A stretch of DNA of 62,494 nt, counting the filler, from Globobulimina sp. (lineage: Eukaryota), in the NCBI GenBank assembly GCA_003354225.1. It is 21 parts of 21 records of this genome, joined end to end, with 100 filler letters (N's around TTAATTAATTAA, not from the genome) between each part and the next. Parts side by side here need not be neighbours in the genome. Positions count along the whole stretch, not along the records: positions 44,724 to 47,603 come from PIVH01004517.1; 20 more parts are not named here. The stretch is one strand, 5' to 3'. Position 1 is the first letter of the stretch. Every line of letters starts with the position of its first letter. The notes beneath the pieces are model-generated. The model was not told the DNA's origin. It searched no databases and saw only the letters and a list, made by a program, of their open reading frames with translations. The position numbers and the translations under genes are program-made. Of this stretch, positions 4,358-62,494 are shown in pieces.

Positions 4358-5860
<1,503 letters not shown>

Positions 5861-44723: not shown

Positions 44724-46712
44724 GATATAGTGTTAAAAATCTTTATTTATTTTTAGCTGCGCAATGTATGGAGTTAATAAATATGAAGGAAATTAATGTA
44801 CAATATTTATCCAATGATTCACAAGTATTTACTATTCGCGCCAAAATCAAAATACATTTTGATTCAATATTCCATAAAAATGCGATTACTCCGATTGATA
44901 GTTAAGTACACATAACTGTTTTAAGTACATATAATATTCTAATATTTTATTTGTATAGTAAGCGTGTATGTTGATGGTGATTCTGTGATAATACAGAATA
45001 GACGAGTTGCACCGCAACCAATTGTTCTGTATGCTGGTAATGATAATGAAATATTAGAAAATTTAGAGGATATATTTATAAATTTATTAAGGGCAATTCG
45101 TACATCACAATCACAACCCATTCATTACAAAAGAAAAATAGTTTTTCAGTTAGGCGACAAAACCATCACATGTGACGGTGCACCACGAAATAAGATCTCA
45201 TGTATTAAAGGTGGAGGTCATGTTAAACGTTTTGGATATGGGTTAGAAACAGCAGAATATACTCACATAATTGCTTGTCATAATCCAAAATTTATGATTA
45301 CATTAAACGATTATTATGAAGCATATGATGAAGAACAGAAAAAATATAAAGATGCAGAGGAAAAAGATATTAAAAGTATGTTTTTTACTTTTTGCATGTT
45401 TACAGAAATAACGTCGTCCTTTTCAAATGACAGAAAATGATCAGTATTTTGGAAGAGAACTATTTTTGAAGAAATATCAACATATTTTACCCGAAATTGG
45501 TTCTACAAGGATTGGCATTGCATCGTTTCATGCTTGCGCGCAAATAACGGAAACTTCAAGTCTTATTGCATGTAAAATAATTGATGAAAAAAACCCAATG
45601 TATGCTAAAATAGCAAACTCTTTAACTGAATGGGATAAAAGAACAAACAGAGGTGAAGGCAGTTATGGTGCACAGGAAGGCATGAAAGTATTATATGAGT
45701 ATGTAGATATATCTGCTATATGAAAAAACTCTACAATAAATTATAAAGGGTTGCCAACAATTTGCCAAATTATATAAAATGTGAATATCAAAATTATGCG
45801 CATTATCTACGAATAATTACGACTGTAGTGGCATATTTATTAACTCGTAAATCAGTAACAAAAGAATTATTAGCTTTAATGCAATTGTATGGATTTTCTG
45901 GATATATGTTAACAGGTAAACTATCTACCTTAACTGGTGGAAAAGATAAAGATCATATATCATATCTTAGTGGTGAAGGCTCCCCGAAATTATTGAATTT
46001 TTTTATTCATTCACATATATATTCAAACTATACTAAAGAGCCACAAGGGTTAGTCAGTGAAAGAGAAAATGAGTTTGCAATGCGATCTTATCCGCAATGG
46101 GTATCTGATGCACATAAAAAACAACCTTTAGGCAATATTTCTGAGGAAGTATCAGGTATTGAAACACTTAAAAAACCGTACAAACAAAAAACACGTCGCC
46201 GACTATTCCATAATATCGTAGTACCTTTGCCAACTAATTTAAAAATTCATAATTGTTTTTTAAAAGAATTATTCACAACCCGCTGCATATTGCAATATTT
46301 TTATTTTCTTCAAAAATCATTAATAAATGATATTAAAAGTATTGACAAATTATTTATATTTCAAAAAAATGGCACAATGTCAACCAAGACAACATTTATT
46401 GATACAAATTGGGATTCGAAAGAATGTATTGTTTGTTTTTGTGAAGGGAAAAGAGAAAGAGATATTTCAAAAAAGATTGATTTTGCTACTTACAGAGAAA
46501 TATTGTGGAGAAAATGTAATGATTTATCCAATCAATGTGATAAAAAAATGAATAAAATATGGCCTGGTTTAGATAAAACAAACACAATGAATGAATTAAT
46601 GGGAACTTTGGGGGAAGAAAAAGAAAATCATAATTCTCCACCAGGAAAAAAATCAAAATTAAATGATTCCACAATAAAAAAAAAAAAGTATTTAAAAAAA
46701 AGAAAAAGATAA
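44724..46712 (+). CDS. RAG1/Transib-like DDE transposase, 5'-truncated; introns 44901-44958, 45376-45433, 45699-45748
   Basis: All three GT-AG introns restore one frame. Motifs in order: KIKIHFD, QPIVLYAGND, TITCDGA, GIASFHA, PKLLNFFIHS, PQGLVSERENE; basic NLS-like C-terminus. Confidence 0.65.
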
Positions 46713-46727
46713 CATCTTTTTTTTTGC

Positions 46728-47462
46728 ATAAATATAATAAAATCATGAATATTTTAAGGCTAGGTTTTTTTGCATGATATGAGTAACATTCGTCAGTTTT
46801 CAGTTTAGTTTTTATGTGGTTGTAATATTAATATATGTAAATGTAACATGTAACAATATAAAAAAAATCACAGCGGTGCATCTTTTTTAAAACTGCGTTC
46901 TTTCTCATTAATTTTGCAAAAACTGTCCACTCTTTTCGGCAGAGTGGACAGATTTTGCAAAATCAGCGCCAATATGTGAATGGTTTTGCCAACAAAATAA
47001 AATGATATATTTGTCAGATTTCAAATTAATTTTTATGTAATAATAATCTTAATATATGTACATGTAACATATAACAATATAAAAAAAATCACAGCGGTGC
47101 ATCTTTTTTAAAACTTTATTTTTCCGCATGACTTGCGAAAAATATTCGTCATATTTTACGTCTCGCTACGTAGTCGCGTGGAATCTATTTACGTCTCTTT
47201 TTTGCCAAGAAACTAAGCTACAATAAATATAATAAAATCATGAACTTAAAACAAAAAATGTATTTCCAAATATTCTATCAAAATACTTAAATCATGTACA
47301 GAGTTTGAAACTCTATCAAAATACTCAAAGAGTTTTGAAACTCTGTGGATCCAGATTCCAAACTCTGTTCACCAGATTTCAAAACTCTGTAGCAAAAAAT
47401 GAACAGAGTTTTGAAACTCTGTTCCAAATTTGATAGAGTTTCAATCTAGGTACAGAGTTTCA
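46728..47462. repeat. Subterminal-type repeat array downstream of the transposase
   Basis: 67-bp direct repeat (46828-46894, 47049-47115), 22-bp direct repeat (46728-46749, 47223-47244), 23-bp-arm hairpin (46911-46963), about ten AGAGTTT/AAACTCT half-sites (47300-47462). Confidence 0.85.
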
Positions 47463-47703
47463 ACATTAACTTGAAAGTGCTTTGATCCGTCGGCAGAATG
47501 TATACTGGATTTATTAAACGAAGCATTGAGGAAAGGGGTGGTAGTTTGGAATAAGACACATTTTATTAAACGCCGAGGATGCGGAATGGGCAGAAGTTGG
47601 GCGNNNNNNNNNNNNNNNNNNNNNNNNNNNNNNNNNNNNNNNNNNNNTTAATTAATTAANNNNNNNNNNNNNNNNNNNNNNNNNNNNNNNNNNNNNNNNN
47701 NNN

Positions 47704-48207
47704 CAATATTACTTTTATCACAATGACCATCTCGGGACTCCGCAGAAGATCACGGCAGTCAATGGGGCAGTTGTATGGAGCGCCAAATACTCATCATTTG
47801 GGAAAGCAACTGTTGAAATAGAGACGGTTGAGAATAACCTCAGGTTCCCGGGCCAGTACTGGGATGAAGAGACCGGGCTGCATTATAACTGGTACAGATA
47901 TTTTGATCCTGAAGTTGGTAGATATCTTAGAGAAGATCCAATCGGTATTGAGGGCGGCTTAAACTATTATCGTTATGTCCTTAATAACCCAATTAATTCC
48001 TTTGATAGTAATGGACTTGTTTGTCAAACTCTATACTCTTTTACAACACCTGGAGGAATGAGCAAAGAAAGTTTATTGAAAGAAACGGGAGATTTTGAAA
48101 ATCACACAAACATTGCCTATGATAACATTGATATAGATAACGCCTATCGATGCGCAATAGCTCTGCATACATCCATTGACGATGAAATCGCGTTGCTTTT
48201 ACACTGA
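47704..48207 (+). CDS. Bacterial Rhs-associated core fragment plus start of a C-terminal tip, probably chimeric
   Basis: YHNDHLGTPQ..NLRFPGQYWDEETGLHYNWYRYFDPEVGRYLREDPIGIEGGLN..NPINSFDSNGL; not in the ORF track. Confidence 0.9.
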   Translation, partial: QYYFYHNDHLGTPQKITAVNGAVVWSAKYSSFGKATVEIETVENNLRFPGQYWDEETGLHYNWYRYFDPEVGRYLREDPIGIEGGLNYYRYVLNNPINSFDSNGLVCQTLYSFTTPGGMSKESLLKETGDFENHTNIAYDNIDIDNAYRCAIALHTSIDDEIALLLH

Positions 48208-48297: not shown

Positions 48298-48861
48298 TTA
48301 TTTTTTCCTTTGCGACATCATTAAAATCTGCACCACTCTCACAAAAATATTGATAGCATCCAAATACAATCCCATTTGTTCGCTAACCGGATCAAAGCGT
48401 GCCGCCACCTGAGCGTCGTGCAACACCCTCTGTGCGTCGTGCGCTGTCATCAAACCAAATAACCCAAGTCCTCCATACAAGGACACATTCATCAATAAGG
48501 TGCTGCCGGGAAAGAACATACCACCCAAACTCGCGGCAATCACAATGCCTAATCCGACCCCTAAGTATGGCCCCATTCGCAAGAAAGTATCGTTGGGCGA
48601 CACCATGGCCGCAGTGCTCATACCGCCTACAATGCAGCCCGTGATTAGCGCGGCCTGCTGCACAATGGCACCGCCTGCAATGCCACATAAAGTCACCAAG
48701 GAGAGGCCCACCAAACCATTGGTGGCGGCCCAAGCTAAATGTTTGGCCATTGGCGAGGTGTGATAGTCAATGCGCATCGTCATGTGTATGGCGCCGAAGG
48801 TCAACAACATGGTTCCAATACCAAATACCATTGGATTCATTGCCATGACGCGGCCCAACAT
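48298..48861 (-). CDS. GHITM: GHITM/Bax inhibitor-1 family protein, last exon
   Basis: AKHLAW, A..TG.IVGGMS..A..SP...FL.MG, LYGGL.LF, LYLDAINIFVR. Confidence 0.85.
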   Translation of the reverse strand: MLGRVMAMNPMVFGIGTMLLTFGAIHMTMRIDYHTSPMAKHLAWAATNGLVGLSLVTLCGIAGGAIVQQAALITGCIVGGMSTAAMVSPNDTFLRMGPYLGVGLGIVIAASLGGMFFPGSTLLMNVSLYGGLGLFGLMTAHDAQRVLHDAQVAARFDPVSEQMGLYLDAINIFVRVVQILMMSQRKK

Positions 48862-49170
48862 ACCTATGTAATGTGTGTGTTGTATGCGTCATTTCTGCAG
48901 TTTTTTGAGGGTGGCAATTTCACGAAATTTCGCACGGAGTTTCGGTGAATTATGAATGTAATGTTTGTCACATACCGCGGGATAAAAATAAAAAGGTGGT
49001 GGCTCCGGTTAATACAACAGAGCCGGCGAGATATCCGTACGTTTTTGCAATTCGTCGCCACGTAAAAACGATATATACATAAAATACGTAGATCAAAAGC
49101 AAAACACCAATCCCACACAAAACAGAATAAGAAGAAAAAAGCCCAACACGCAGCATCAGCGCCACTTACT

Positions 49171-50424
49171 GTGGTACCCAAATCCCCGCCACCCAAAGTA
49201 CCCAGAACTCGTTGCCTCCAAACTGAACAAAATAACATCCCCAAAGCCAGAGAGATAACACACTCACAAAGTGTACCCGAAGAAAGCAAAGAAAACAAAG
49301 AAGGCGCAAACAACACTACCAATACAGCGCCAAAACCGCTGCCATTGTCGCTAGCCCAATATATTAACGAATCATACGCATCGACCCCAATCCATTTAGG
49401 CAGCCTTCAAAACTTAGAATGGAAGCCATTGTACAGTGACGATTTCTGGTCGAAGCCGGCTTTACTTTTCCATGAAGCGTTCAGCGATGCCTTTGTAAAA
49501 AAAATGCACGCTACGCGCAAGTCGACCGGCTTGAAAATAGGGGAATGGAACATTGACGATGACGAAAAGTGCACTGATAACCAACCTATAACTTATGTGC
49601 GAAAATCAGAATACATCTCGAAAATCAAGGATCCGCCACCTTTTATGCCAGCAAAAACGGAGGTTTATGAGACGCAGAGATTCAGATTTTATGGGCGCGA
49701 TCGCGTAGTGGTTGACGCCGCAATCTCTACTCCAAATATTAAATACGGCGACTATTTCATCATTAGTCAACGATACGTGTTTACTGTGAATGAGCGCGAC
49801 GAGAATAAGACACATATGGACTGCTCGCTGGCCATCAAATGGGTAAAAAAAACCTGGTTTGAGAAGATCATTACATCCAAAGCCACGTCGGAGGCCGAAC
49901 AAGGAGTGGCGATGTGGTGCAGTAAGTTGCACGAGATATTCCTGCCGAAAATATCCAAGCAAGAGATGTTAATTAAACAGATATCAAAGAAAGACTTATT
50001 GCCTTCGCCCAGACGGCGCGTGATCGATAAGAAGGTCATCGATTATTTTCATGCGCCAATGATACAAAGGAGTCGGCGCGATGTCATCGTGGATGATTGG
50101 CTCAGACCGTGTGGTGAGTTGTTGGTGGATGTTTTGAAGGTGGTTTGTAGGAAATCTTCGTGGACCAATTTGTATAACGTTTTTTTGCAGATTAATGATG
50201 TAGAACAAGATGACAATTTGATTACGGTTAAACATGGAGTAATGGCGATTGTGTTGGTTGTGTTGCTGTTTGTTGTGTGTAATATGGGTTGGATGCTTAT
50301 GTGGTACTGGTATTCATCGTCGTTGAGTGCTGTTATTCGGCAACAAAATGAAATATTACAAGAACAATCTCAAGTGTTTGAACAGTTGTTGTTGTTTTTG
50401 AAGCAGGATAAATGTGTAAAATGA
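49171..50424 (+). CDS. VASt (StART-like sterol transfer) domain protein with C-terminal TM; 5' end uncertain
   Basis: TPNIKYGDYF.I.QRY, IKWVKKTWFEKII, then TM and coiled coil. Confidence 0.75.
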   Translation: MVPKSPPPKVPRTRCLQTEQNNIPKAREITHSQSVPEESKENKEGANNTTNTAPKPLPLSLAQYINESYASTPIHLGSLQNLEWKPLYSDDFWSKPALLFHEAFSDAFVKKMHATRKSTGLKIGEWNIDDDEKCTDNQPITYVRKSEYISKIKDPPPFMPAKTEVYETQRFRFYGRDRVVVDAAISTPNIKYGDYFIISQRYVFTVNERDENKTHMDCSLAIKWVKKTWFEKIITSKATSEAEQGVAMWCSKLHEIFLPKISKQEMLIKQISKKDLLPSPRRRVIDKKVIDYFHAPMIQRSRRDVIVDDWLRPCGELLVDVLKVVCRKSSWTNLYNVFLQINDVEQDDNLITVKHGVMAIVLVVLLFVVCNMGWMLMWYWYSSSLSAVIRQQNEILQEQSQVFEQLLLFLKQDKCVK

Positions 50425-59617: not shown

Positions 59618-60943
59618 GGCGGTGATCTGATGCAAATAGAGGGTTTGCGGGAAGAAACACAACGCACTGTAGACCTTGCCAAGAAGATCGAAGCGGCTCC
59701 TGACTTTGCATCAAAGCAAGCCGTTATTCAAAAGGAAGCTTCCACGGCTATTACCAACGGTGCGGACCCTCAACAGTTTATTGATTTAAAGAACAAATCT
59801 AAAGACGAGCTAGACGCGGCTGTCTTGAAGGCACAGACAACGAGTACTGAAGTCTTAAAGGCATTGCCTAAACCTCCAGCTTTTTTAGCCACACCGGAGC
59901 AACGGGCGGCGTTTGGACGTTTGGCGGTTAGTAATCCAAAGGCTGCAAATGCTTTGTTATCGGCGGAGAAGCTGAAAGCTGAACAAGCACAAGCGCAAGA
60001 AACGTTTGAGCCTGTTTTAAATGAAGCGGGGGATATTGTAGGCCAAAGGTCCACAACCACAGGCCGTGTTGTCTCAGACCCTCGCACAACAGCCAGAGCA
60101 GCCCCTACAACACCATTAGGCAGGGCTCGGCAAGACCTAGACGCCGGGTTTATTACACAGCAAGAATTTAACGCCATGAAGAAGGCCCCTACTAAATTCA
60201 AATCTACCGTTGGAAACCTTATAGGCGATAAAAAATTAGCTGTTGAAACCTTTGGGCCAGATAGTGATGAAGTTAAGGTTATTGACACGGCTATCAAGGC
60301 AGCAACGCGGGGCAAAACAGTACCCCCTAAGTTTGAAACCTTTGTTGGCACTGATGGCGTACCATTTGACATTGATATAGCTTCGCCAGAGGGTGCGGCG
60401 TTGGCAAAGAAAACAATTGCAGAAGGCGGCAGAAAAGGCCAAGCGGAAGACAAAAAGATAACTGCTGATCAAAGAAAAGCGGCGTCTTTTGCTGTTCGCA
60501 CCGACGAAGCATCTAAAACAATTAACTCATTAGGTACGCAATTTACAGAGTTTGGTTCTGGTGTTGGCGGGTTATTGCCCAATATCTTTAAAAGTTCTGA
60601 CAGACAAAGATTTGAACAAGCGGAACGAAACTTTATTAACGCTATTCTACGTAGGGAATCAGGCGCGGCTATTGCTGAATCAGAATTTGATAACGCGCGT
60701 GTTCAATACATCCCACAGCCAGGAGATACAGAGGAAAATTTAGCTCAAAAAGCTAGAAACCGTCTTGCAGTATCAACGGCGCTTAATGTGGAAGCAGGAC
60801 GGGCTGCAAGTCAATTGCGAGAGGCTTTACCTCAAACGATACTTATTCAAGGCGTAGAAAGAAATGTCGGAGACACAATAACAAATAGTGCTGGTCAACG
60901 TGGCAGATTAGAAGCAGATGGTACAATAACGGTTCTTCCGTAA
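59618..60943 (+). CDS. Phage internal virion/DNA-ejection-like protein (5'-truncated)
   Basis: Ala-rich helical sequence, motif NAILRRESGAAI..SEF..A..QY.PQPGD, no introns, higher GC than the eukaryotic contigs. Confidence 0.55.
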   Translation, partial: GGDLMQIEGLREETQRTVDLAKKIEAAPDFASKQAVIQKEASTAITNGADPQQFIDLKNKSKDELDAAVLKAQTTSTEVLKALPKPPAFLATPEQRAAFGRLAVSNPKAANALLSAEKLKAEQAQAQETFEPVLNEAGDIVGQRSTTTGRVVSDPRTTARAAPTTPLGRARQDLDAGFITQQEFNAMKKAPTKFKSTVGNLIGDKKLAVETFGPDSDEVKVIDTAIKAATRGKTVPPKFETFVGTDGVPFDIDIASPEGAALAKKTIAEGGRKGQAEDKKITADQRKAASFAVRTDEASKTINSLGTQFTEFGSGVGGLLPNIFKSSDRQRFEQAERNFINAILRRESGAAIAESEFDNARVQYIPQPGDTEENLAQKARNRLAVSTALNVEAGRAASQLREALPQTILIQGVERNVGDTITNSAGQRGRLEADGTITVLP

Positions 60944-60952
60944 AGGTTTGGT

Positions 60953-62494
60953 ATGGTTAATCTAACTCAAGAGCAATTTTTTGGTGGCGTAACACCAGAA
61001 GTCACACCTCAAGTAACGCCAGAGGTTTCTATAAGTGTGACCGATGCGCAGCCAGCCCAAACAACAGTTACACAAGAACAGTTTTTTGATCAACCGGCTG
61101 CAGTTGAAGAACAGGGATTTCTAGAACGTGCCGGGGGAGATTTAGAAACTAGACTGGAAGAGGCGGCACAAATTAACCAGCGTGTCGCAACAGGTGAAAT
61201 ATCGTTGCTGGAAGGTGTAGCTTCAGTGTTTGCACGTCCTCTTATCGGAGGTGTTGTAGATGTTGCAGGAGAGGCCCTCAGAAGCGCTGGAGAAACTATT
61301 AGCGACATTACCCCGGAAGCTGTAGCGGAGCCTGTGAGCGATGCTTTTACAAGCGTTATGGGTACTCTTTCTAAGAGTCTGAACGAAATAGCAGCGACAG
61401 ACGAAGGAAAACTAGGATTAGAAGCTATAAAGGCGGGTGGAGAGGTCTATCAATCGTTTAAAAAGTTTGCACCCCGAACAGCCGAACAATTAGAGAATAT
61501 AGGTATTACCACATTAGCCTTAGCGCCAACACCGATTAAAGGAGCAAGAGCAGCGCCAACACCGGGCGTTGTTGGACGTGCTGGCGAAGCAGTCGGGGCA
61601 AGAGGTGTTGCTCAAGAAGCGGCAAAGCGCACGGAGTTTGTAAATGATTTAATCCGGCCCAAACAAACCGCAGCGGTTAGAGCGGAGCAGGTAGGGCGAA
61701 CGACGGAACAAGGCTTGTTAAGACAAAAGGTTGTTGCTCCTAGTGCTCAAGAGGCACAAATAGCGGCTGAAGTCTCTCTGATACCGGGTGTGGCACCTTC
61801 TAAAACACTCGTAGGTAATTTTGGAGAAATTAATAAAGAAGTAGTTACAGAGGCTAAAAGTCTTAAAACACTTTTAGATAAAAACCCTGTTGCTATTCCT
61901 AAAAAAGAATTCAAATCAGAACTCGATAAAATTGGCGCTCGTCTTATTGAGGAAGACCCTACGATTGTAGGAGACGCGGCTAAATCCGCACAAAGAGTTA
62001 TTAGCAAGATGAAAAGCATTGTTGATAGCAATCCCGGCACGGCGGCGGGTCTTTTAAAGTCTCGTAAAGAAATAGACGCTTGGGTGCGTCAGAGAAGCAG
62101 CAAGCTATTAGACCCAACAACGGGAACGGCAATGTCTACGGCTGTCGCGGCTGTCCGTAGAACGACGAATGATTTTATAGATTCAAAGGTTCCTAATGTG
62201 GATGTTAAAGACTCTCTTAGGAAACAGTCTAAACTCTTCGATGCTATGGATAACATTAAATTAAAAGCAGCCGATGAAGGCGCTACTGTTATTGAAAGAG
62301 CATGGCAGAACGTCCAGAACGTCGTTACCAATAAGTCACAAATATCACAAGCATTAGCAACAGCGGTTGGTATTGGTGGTTTAGGAGCAGCAGCAGCTTT
62401 TGCACCGGTTCTTAGAGATGCAATAATCGTTGGTGGTTTAACGTTTGGTGCGCGTAAGGCTCTCCTCTCTCCTAAGCTAAAAAAAGGAGTTTCA
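60953..62494 (+). CDS. Second phage virion/ejection-like protein (3'-truncated)
   Basis: ATG 9 nt after the previous stop; MVNLTQEQFF.., GFLERAG; Ala/Gly-rich and open to the window end; not in the ORF track. Confidence 0.55.
   Translation, partial: MVNLTQEQFFGGVTPEVTPQVTPEVSISVTDAQPAQTTVTQEQFFDQPAAVEEQGFLERAGGDLETRLEEAAQINQRVATGEISLLEGVASVFARPLIGGVVDVAGEALRSAGETISDITPEAVAEPVSDAFTSVMGTLSKSLNEIAATDEGKLGLEAIKAGGEVYQSFKKFAPRTAEQLENIGITTLALAPTPIKGARAAPTPGVVGRAGEAVGARGVAQEAAKRTEFVNDLIRPKQTAAVRAEQVGRTTEQGLLRQKVVAPSAQEAQIAAEVSLIPGVAPSKTLVGNFGEINKEVVTEAKSLKTLLDKNPVAIPKKEFKSELDKIGARLIEEDPTIVGDAAKSAQRVISKMKSIVDSNPGTAAGLLKSRKEIDAWVRQRSSKLLDPTTGTAMSTAVAAVRRTTNDFIDSKVPNVDVKDSLRKQSKLFDAMDNIKLKAADEGATVIERAWQNVQNVVTNKSQISQALATAVGIGGLGAAAAFAPVLRDAIIVGGLTFGARKALLSPKLKKGVS

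Follow-up and report, generated by a model that had tools for sequence, protein, structure and literature searches.

Does a short contig assigned to Globobulimina sp. encode a relative of RAG1 and Transib transposases, another kind of DNA-cutting enzyme, or no transposase at all? The DNA examined here (the window; 62,494 nucleotides [nt] from the Globobulimina sp. assembly GCA_003354225.1) includes, at positions 44724 to 47603, a contig (PIVH01004517.1) on which a first-pass annotation, made from the sequence alone, had described an intact, intron-containing RAG1/Transib-like transposase of a probably rhizarian host. The contig does carry a genuine spliced gene, of which it covers the 3′ two-thirds. 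Its product belongs to a small family of proteins that lacks a Pfam model, and we tentatively favor, as something approaching an even call, derivation of this family from a cut-and-paste transposase of the Asp-Asp-Glu (DDE), RNase-H-like kind with no assigned superfamily.

Four plus-strand exons, separated by GT-AG introns of 58, 58, and 50 nt, join to give one stop-free frame of 1821 nt, equivalent to 606 codons plus TAA. Exon 1 (44726 to 44900) is truncated where the contig begins and is followed by intron 1 (44901 to 44958; GTTAAGT...TATAG). Exon 2 (44959 to 45375) encodes the motifs QPIVLYAGND, TCDGAPRNK, and KGGGH, and intron 2 (45376 to 45433; GTATGT...GACAG) interrupts the gene at a point where the alignment with relatives runs unbroken from DIKK into NDQY. 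Exon 3 (45434 to 45698) contains the IASFHA and GAQ motifs and is separated by intron 3 (45699 to 45748; GTATGT...TAAAG) from the last exon, exon 4 (45749 to 46712), which consists of 320 codons and the TAA at 46710 to 46712 and encodes a helical region, the IHSH and SERENE motifs, an HxC...CxC domain, and a Lys/Arg-rich tail. At the composition of this contig (29.5% G+C content [GC], 0.087 stops per codon), an open frame of 321 codons would arise by chance with a probability of about 2e-13, and the longest frame in 500 shuffles had a mean of 80.5 codons and a maximum of 143.

Comparison with related proteins supported the splicing. The spliced protein is collinear with, and aligns unbroken at every junction to, the relatives P0002 (32% identity over 542 amino acids [aa]; expect value [E], 8e-76) and P0006 (27% identity over 567 aa; E, 3e-63). 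When proteins of the family were searched against the window with tblastn, only the contig at 44724 to 47603 was matched, in consecutive pieces in three frames that correspond to exons 2, 3, and 4. The unbroken alignments and the tblastn pieces in three frames therefore confirm the splice model by homology, and the three GT-AG introns with which the first-pass annotation had joined a first exon and three open reading frames (ORFs) were confirmed in type and length. Among sequencing runs, no RNA run was listed as containing the sequence, and one run of unrecorded type contained 69% of the sampled words. The description of the gene as intact holds for its splicing and its stop-free frame only: wholeness is unproven, as the N-terminal 370 or so residues of the full-length relatives, i.e., the 5′ third of the gene, fall beyond the contig start. 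The first ∼10 codons of the frame (44726 to 44756) probably belong to the 3′ part of a fourth intron, with a T-rich tract and a putative acceptor AG at 44755 to 44756; similarity to relatives begins directly afterwards (...MELINMKEIN...), from about 44757 on.

Elsewhere in the window, a conventional beta-tubulin gene (4358 to 5860; ORFs at 4358 to 5029 and 5291 to 5860) has a single intron of roughly 260 nt, far longer than the 50- to 58-nt introns of the transposase-like gene.

When 1.84 billion representative proteins were scanned in full with HMMER, exon 4 as the query (320 of the 606 residues) returned 17 proteins at an E of ≤0.001, with 9 at ≤1e-10 and 3 at ≤1e-30. The spliced protein recovered 16 of these 17, and the remaining one, P0017, is marginal. 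Identity to the window copy ranges from 24 to 57%, and clusters formed at 90% identity have one member each, except for two with four and two members. Only three relatives come with a named host: P0002, P0005, and P0006 are labelled as proteins of the foraminiferan Bolivina argentea in EukProt, and P0002 (985 aa) and P0006 (1018 aa) are full length. The remaining members are on short contigs of 0.9 to 11.6 kb, apart from the marginal P0017, which is on a contig of >800 kb. Through the three Bolivina proteins, the proposal of a probably rhizarian host gains support. The EukProt set for B. argentea is presumably derived from transcriptome data, in which case the full-length members are expressed. 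Both polyA and total-RNA transcriptomes of this species are in print (PMC8153729).

Further searches did not enlarge the family. Word-seeded searches with whole P0002, with residues 330 to 720 of P0002 against shorter proteins, and with the profile from alignment A6 retrieved P0002 itself or nothing, and scans for encoding loci gave 382 pattern matches in metagenome contigs, 38 in viral contigs, and 57 in prokaryotic genome contigs, with no relative among them. Judged by sequence, this is a small, undescribed protein family, found so far in foraminifera and on short contigs of no stated host. The family itself is what is new here, and in the literature, as judged by titles and the beginnings of abstracts, we found no published account of a foraminiferal transposase of this kind.

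Which residues has the family retained? Columns across the full core rest on the three sequences that cover it, whereas exon-4 columns rest on up to 16 aligned sequences. MAFFT misplaced the short exons 1 and 2; alignment A6 omits exon 1, and alignments A3 and A7 omit exons 1 and 2. The candidate first catalytic Asp (D1) is Asp46 of the HFD motif (44861 to 44863), and the candidate second (D2) is Asp131 of the CDG motif (45174 to 45176); each is Asp in three of three covering sequences. The candidate catalytic Glu lies in E390-R-E-N-E394 (46059 to 46073), which matches the most conserved motif of the family, E-R-x-N-E, with both Glu residues present in 11 of 11 sequences and the Arg and the Asn each in 10 of 11. 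The positions given in the first-pass annotation for the Asp of HFD (44861), the Asp of CDG (45174), and the final Glu of SERENE (46071) are all correct; the first Glu of that motif starts at 46059. D1 and D2 are 85 to 95 aa apart in the three covering sequences, and D2 and the Glu are 259 to 261 aa apart.

Among the columns that are invariant in the three sequences covering the core are F-D (D46), a P...A..D.E-like block, and x-D-x-x-P..K (D131), followed by K-x-G-x-H (H146), I-x-K-N-x-Q, F-H-A (H230), G-A-Q, L/I-H (H373), and E-R-x-N-E. Invariant His residues of the core are found 15 and 99 aa beyond D2 (the latter in FHA) and 17 aa ahead of E390. At the second His of IHSH, only 6 of 16 aligned sequences have His.

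Beyond the core, His453/Cys455 and Cys515/Cys517 (46248 to 46442) make up a candidate zinc site, which would coordinate the metal through residues that are strongly conserved (His in 11 of 12 sequences and the three Cys in 13 of 13, 11 of 11, and 11 of 11, respectively). Cys455, Cys515, and Cys517 are also the only invariant Cys residues of the family. The protein ends in a Lys/Arg-rich tail, KKKKYLKKRKR (46677 to 46709), which is likely to be a nuclear localization signal, and P0003, P0004, and P0006 also end in Lys/Arg-rich tails.

Some relatives carry additional domains. P0001 has a PHD finger that scores 37.2 bits, against a Pfam cutoff of 24, and the family profile matched the PHD fingers of DIDO1, PHF13, BPTF, and TAF3 in the PDB, down to an E of 1.3e-08; a C-terminal PHD finger in P0002, P0004, P0007, and P0008 is supported by alignment and by these matches. 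In P0007 and P0008, the PHD finger is followed by a ubiquitin carboxyl-terminal hydrolase domain (Pfam UCH; 31.8 bits [E, 1.4e-07] and 31.6 bits [E, 1.7e-07], respectively; cutoff, 23.9). Because the two proteins can be aligned throughout, the UCH fusion is probably real rather than an accident of gene calling. A Pfam scan of the exons of the window copy found neither a PHD finger nor UCH, and this copy ends in the Lys/Arg tail.

The AlphaFold2 model of P0002, from an alignment of 14 rows, has a mean predicted local distance difference test score (pLDDT) of 51.7 and falls below 50 over residues 315 to 513, which are the catalytic part. In this low-confidence model, a strand (364 to 369) ends just ahead of D373 and is followed by two strands, a long helix (414 to 436), and a hydrophobic stretch ending at D468, an order that would correspond to β1-β2-β3-α1-β4 of the RNase-H fold. 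Foldseek found nothing in the PDB for the P0002 model at an E of ≤0.001, the catalytic part being too poorly modelled for its fold to be judged; as the alignment was too shallow, this result is void and counts as evidence in neither direction. Exon 4 of the window copy, modelled from 20 rows, reached a mean pLDDT of 69.6, with values mostly >90 over about residues 160 to 285, which include the His/Cys domain. This confidently modelled C-terminal domain has no structural neighbor by Foldseek, the best match of the exon-4 model having an E of 3.1 in the PDB and 0.34 in BFVD.

What might such a protein do? If the family is derived from a DDE transposase, as we tentatively favor, then D46, D131, and the Glu of E-R-x-N-E (E390 or E394) would bind the metal ions with which DNA strands are cleaved and transferred, and about 260 largely helical residues would be inserted between the second Asp and the Glu. 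The His/Cys3 C-terminal domain and the Lys/Arg tail could make contacts with DNA or protein and could serve nuclear import, while the PHD finger of some relatives may tether the enzyme to histone tails.

Four features fit this reading. First, D46, D131, and E390/E394 are invariant, and the distance from D2 to the Glu is within the range of DDE enzymes with long insertions. Second, E-R-x-N-E has the strongest conservation in the family, as expected of an active site. Third, PHD fingers and Lys/Arg tails are chromatin-reading and nuclear modules and would suit an enzyme that acts on DNA. Fourth, the many divergent paralogues on short contigs and the repeats 3′ of the ORF are in keeping with a transposon-derived family.

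These repeats are in the 891-bp 3′ flank (46713 to 47603). A 134-nt direct repeat occurs at 46788 to 46921 and 47009 to 47142 (83% identity), with CACAGCGGTG in each copy, and an exact 22-mer is present at 46728 and again at 47223. Palindromic units resembling ACAGAGTTTTGAAACTCTGT are clustered at 47282 to 47467, where 4 matches with up to 3 mismatches compare with 0.02 expected, and the best tandem array of the flank has 2.4 copies of 22 bp. These repeats could be subterminal sites for transposase binding or could belong to an unrelated small repeat element.

Several results weigh against a DDE origin. None of the sequence or structure searches ties the family to a transposase. In Pfam, none of the four exons and none of P0002, P0006, and P0015 matched a family at an E of ≤10, although the same search worked on other genes of the window, and NCBIfam gave no match for the family. 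PDB sequence searches (phmmer with exon 2, exon 4, P0002, and P0006) returned either nothing or PHD-type and chance matches, and ESM Atlas gave no usable match for whole P0002 or for its residues 340 to 905. No transposase was among the listed Foldseek matches of either model, the confident C-terminal domain included, and the proposed RNase-H core rests on the region of P0002 (315 to 513) in which pLDDT is <50. Finally, nine columns (46, 87, 131, 237, 248, 390, 394, 504, and 522) are acidic in all three full-core sequences, so that the D, D, E triad is not unique in its invariance.

The last point is also the starting point of the rival explanation that survives best, although we regard it as unlikely: that the protein is no transposase and that the family is a lineage-specific group of foraminiferal nuclear or chromatin proteins, in which the “DDE” residues are three of many conserved acidic positions. 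With nine invariant acidic columns, some D..D..E can always be selected. A family of chromatin proteins would be consistent with the failure of every library searched to match the family to a nuclease or a transposase, with a C-terminal domain that has no structural neighbor, and with the PHD and UCH fusions, which are typical of chromatin regulators. It would also be consistent with few copies per cluster, deeply diverged paralogues, introns, and the full-length forms in B. argentea, a species for which transcriptomes are the only data found in print (PMC8153729). Such a family would not, however, be expected to place its invariant residues as an RNase-H-type enzyme does relative to the strands and helix predicted by the low-confidence model, nor to have its peak of conservation at E-R-x-N-E, as if at an active site. 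The patchy occurrence on many short contigs and the flanking repeats likewise suit mobile DNA.

Does the protein then belong to the RAG1/Transib superfamily, as the first-pass annotation had claimed? The invariant His residues at D2+15, D2+99 (FHA), and 17 aa before the Glu are roughly where RAG1 has its zinc ligands and an active-site His, and the candidate D, D, E order, the long insertion before the Glu, the conserved His residues that flank this insertion, and the nuclear features are all points of likeness to RAG1 and Transib. The zinc module of RAG1, however, has a CxxC soon after the second Asp in addition to two His residues before the Glu. None of the three sequences of the present family has a CxxC after D2, and no Cys is invariant within the core; the first-pass annotation had already remarked that this CxxC looks absent. 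The spacing, too, is suggestive, in that D1 to D2 (85 to 95 aa) and D2 to the Glu (259 to 261 aa) are near the 108 and 253 aa of RAG1, and D2 to the Glu is 206 to 214 aa in Transib and 325 aa in hAT (PMC1131882). The sequence landmarks are compatible with the layout of RAG1 without being diagnostic of it.

Membership in the superfamily was not borne out by the searches. Pfam returned no family, phmmer against the PDB returned no RAG1, RAGL, or Transib chain, and the core profile A6, three sequences deep and 1000 positions long, found no such chain at an E of ≤10. These negatives presume, without a positive control, that the libraries contain a Pfam model of RAG1 and the PDB chains of RAG1, RAGL, and Transib. 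As far as could be told, the 17 proteins matched by exon 4 include neither RAG1 nor a Transib transposase. PSI-BLAST connects RAG1 with Transib, whereas the present family has no detectable similarity to either; exon 4 corresponds to the part of RAG1 that is best conserved with Transib (PMC1131882), yet it retrieved only 17 proteins, of which 16 are confirmed family members and one is marginal. RAG1 and the two subgroups of Transib share a conserved GRP motif in their nonamer-binding domain (PMC9435367), but the N termini of the full-length relatives, a region that is off the window contig, lack it (0 of 2). The family has a His/Cys3 C-terminal domain of its own, and the good model of this domain found no match among the structures of RAG1, RAGL, or Transib. 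Elements of the superfamily have terminal inverted repeats that start with a CAC heptamer, make 5-bp target duplications, and, in the RAG-like subset, lie next to a RAG2-like Kelch-PHD gene; the window contig has room for little more than the studied gene and its 891-bp repeat-bearing flank. The CAYWGTG heptamer does not occur in the 3′ flank (46713 to 47603), and CACAATG sites are found only inside exon 4.

It is doubtful that the gene encodes a true but very divergent Transib/RAG1 member, which would cut by nicking and hairpin formation at heptamer-like ends and would, in some relatives, have a PHD finger fused in cis. Transib and RAG-like elements are known from protists, with a pelagophyte among the described hosts, and from fungi, plants, ctenophores, and bacteria (PMC9435367), so that a Transib in a protist would not be new in kind. 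The PHD finger of the relatives offers a further likeness, being the module that RAG2 contributes in trans (PMC4411706).

Foraminiferan nuclear cycles involve large-scale genome processing. An extended version of the RAG1/Transib proposal, in which a deep Transib/RAG1-like lineage combines the core with a PHD reader of the type that binds trimethylated Lys4 of histone H3 in one polypeptide (RAG1 plus RAG2 in cis) and has been kept as expressed, intron-bearing foraminiferal host genes, in a second, independent taming for programmed DNA cutting, is very improbable.

The remaining alternative is a DDE superfamily that is already known but has few representatives in Pfam and the PDB, such as Rehavkus/MULE-like elements, Kolobok, P, or hAT; several Repbase superfamilies have no solved structure, which limits the weight of the negative searches against them. 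The D2-to-Glu distance of MULE transposases is far shorter than the 259 to 261 aa of the present family. No Pfam family was found at an E of ≤10, and hence no MULE, hAT, or P-element model, which we take to be part of the library searched. In hAT, P, and Kolobok, as in the family, a long insertion separates the second Asp from the Glu (325 aa in hAT; PMC1131882), and in Hermes, RAG1, and the P element the insertion is between β5 and α4 (PMC8230255). The hAT/P/MuDR/Kolobok/Dada group is marked by C/DxxH, located after the second Asp and ahead of the Glu (PMC9587614), but the present family lacks this signature: none of the four invariant His residues has Cys or Asp at position −3, and an aligned [CD]xxH between D2 and the Glu is found in none of the three sequences. 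Rehavkus transposases carry a PHD finger and have a minisatellite ahead of the 3′ inverted repeat, and the C-terminal PHD finger of the relatives and the clustered repeats in the 3′ flank provide a weak parallel (PMC6446971). The window copy itself, however, has no PHD finger, no C/DxxH, and no Pfam match; the repeat cluster is weak, with a best tandem array of only 2.4 copies; and Rehavkus is reported from arthropods and annelids only (PMC6446971). Membership in one of these superfamilies is very improbable.

If the family is derived from a DDE transposase, are its members still mobile? Deep divergence, introns, domain fusions, and the full-length Bolivina forms lean towards old copies, possibly adopted by the host, over a recently active transposon, and the window copy may have the same status. 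The ciliate protein Tpb2, derived from a piggyBac transposase, offers an analogy only: it combines a transposase-like protein with a module that reads chromatin, in a protist whose nuclear biology is unusual (PMC3861120). Tpb2, however, belongs to the piggyBac superfamily, and nothing in the present family demonstrates adoption by the host or participation in genome rearrangement.

A DDE origin, if true, would mean that Foraminifera contain an unrecognized transposase lineage, for which the PHD and UCH fusions in some members and the full-length Bolivina forms suggest host adoption. If a link to Transib and RAG1 were true instead, a rhizarian branch would be added to a superfamily that has already been traced to protists and bacteria (PMC9435367), and a natural fusion of core and PHD finger would be available for comparison with RAG1/RAG2. 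As it stands, this is a well-supported orphan gene family that does not yet bear on the evolution of RAG and is suited to structure prediction with better alignments.

The surroundings of the gene in the window have no bearing on these questions. Twenty linkers, each consisting of TTAATTAATTAA between two runs of 44 N's, divide the window into 21 segments of about 2.88 to 2.98 kb, and the 2880-bp contig of the studied gene is joined by linkers to unrelated contigs on both sides. The contigs are nearly uniform in size, their lengths falling gradually from 2883 to about 2877 bp. Gene order across a linker is therefore spurious, and flanking genes are not physically linked to the transposase-like gene; adjoining genes had been considered as context for it and were dropped for this reason. 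An Rfam search of the window gave no match.

The other segments carry eukaryotic genes (beta-tubulin, sulfatase, Bax inhibitor-1, and a VASt-domain protein) as well as genes of bacterial or phage type (a DNA polymerase III alpha fragment and an RHS core), and the assembly seems to mix the eukaryote with its microbes. The first segment (1 to 2883) looks bacterial or phage derived and includes a PHP/NTPase fragment of DNA polymerase III alpha at 5 to 1678 on the minus strand, and the last (59618 to 62494; 46% GC) has two long ORFs with no Pfam match and a composition like that of phage structural genes. On a single contig at 47704 to 50582, with a GC content (∼44%) above that of neighboring contigs, the end of a bacterial-type RHS core (Pfam RHS, 4.6e-16; 47704 to 48204, plus strand) is found together with two genes of eukaryotic type, Bax inhibitor-1 (48301 to 48888, minus strand) and a VASt-domain protein (49066 to 50421, plus strand). 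Two possibilities are a chimeric contig and a protist YD/RHS gene that was transferred or resembles teneurins.

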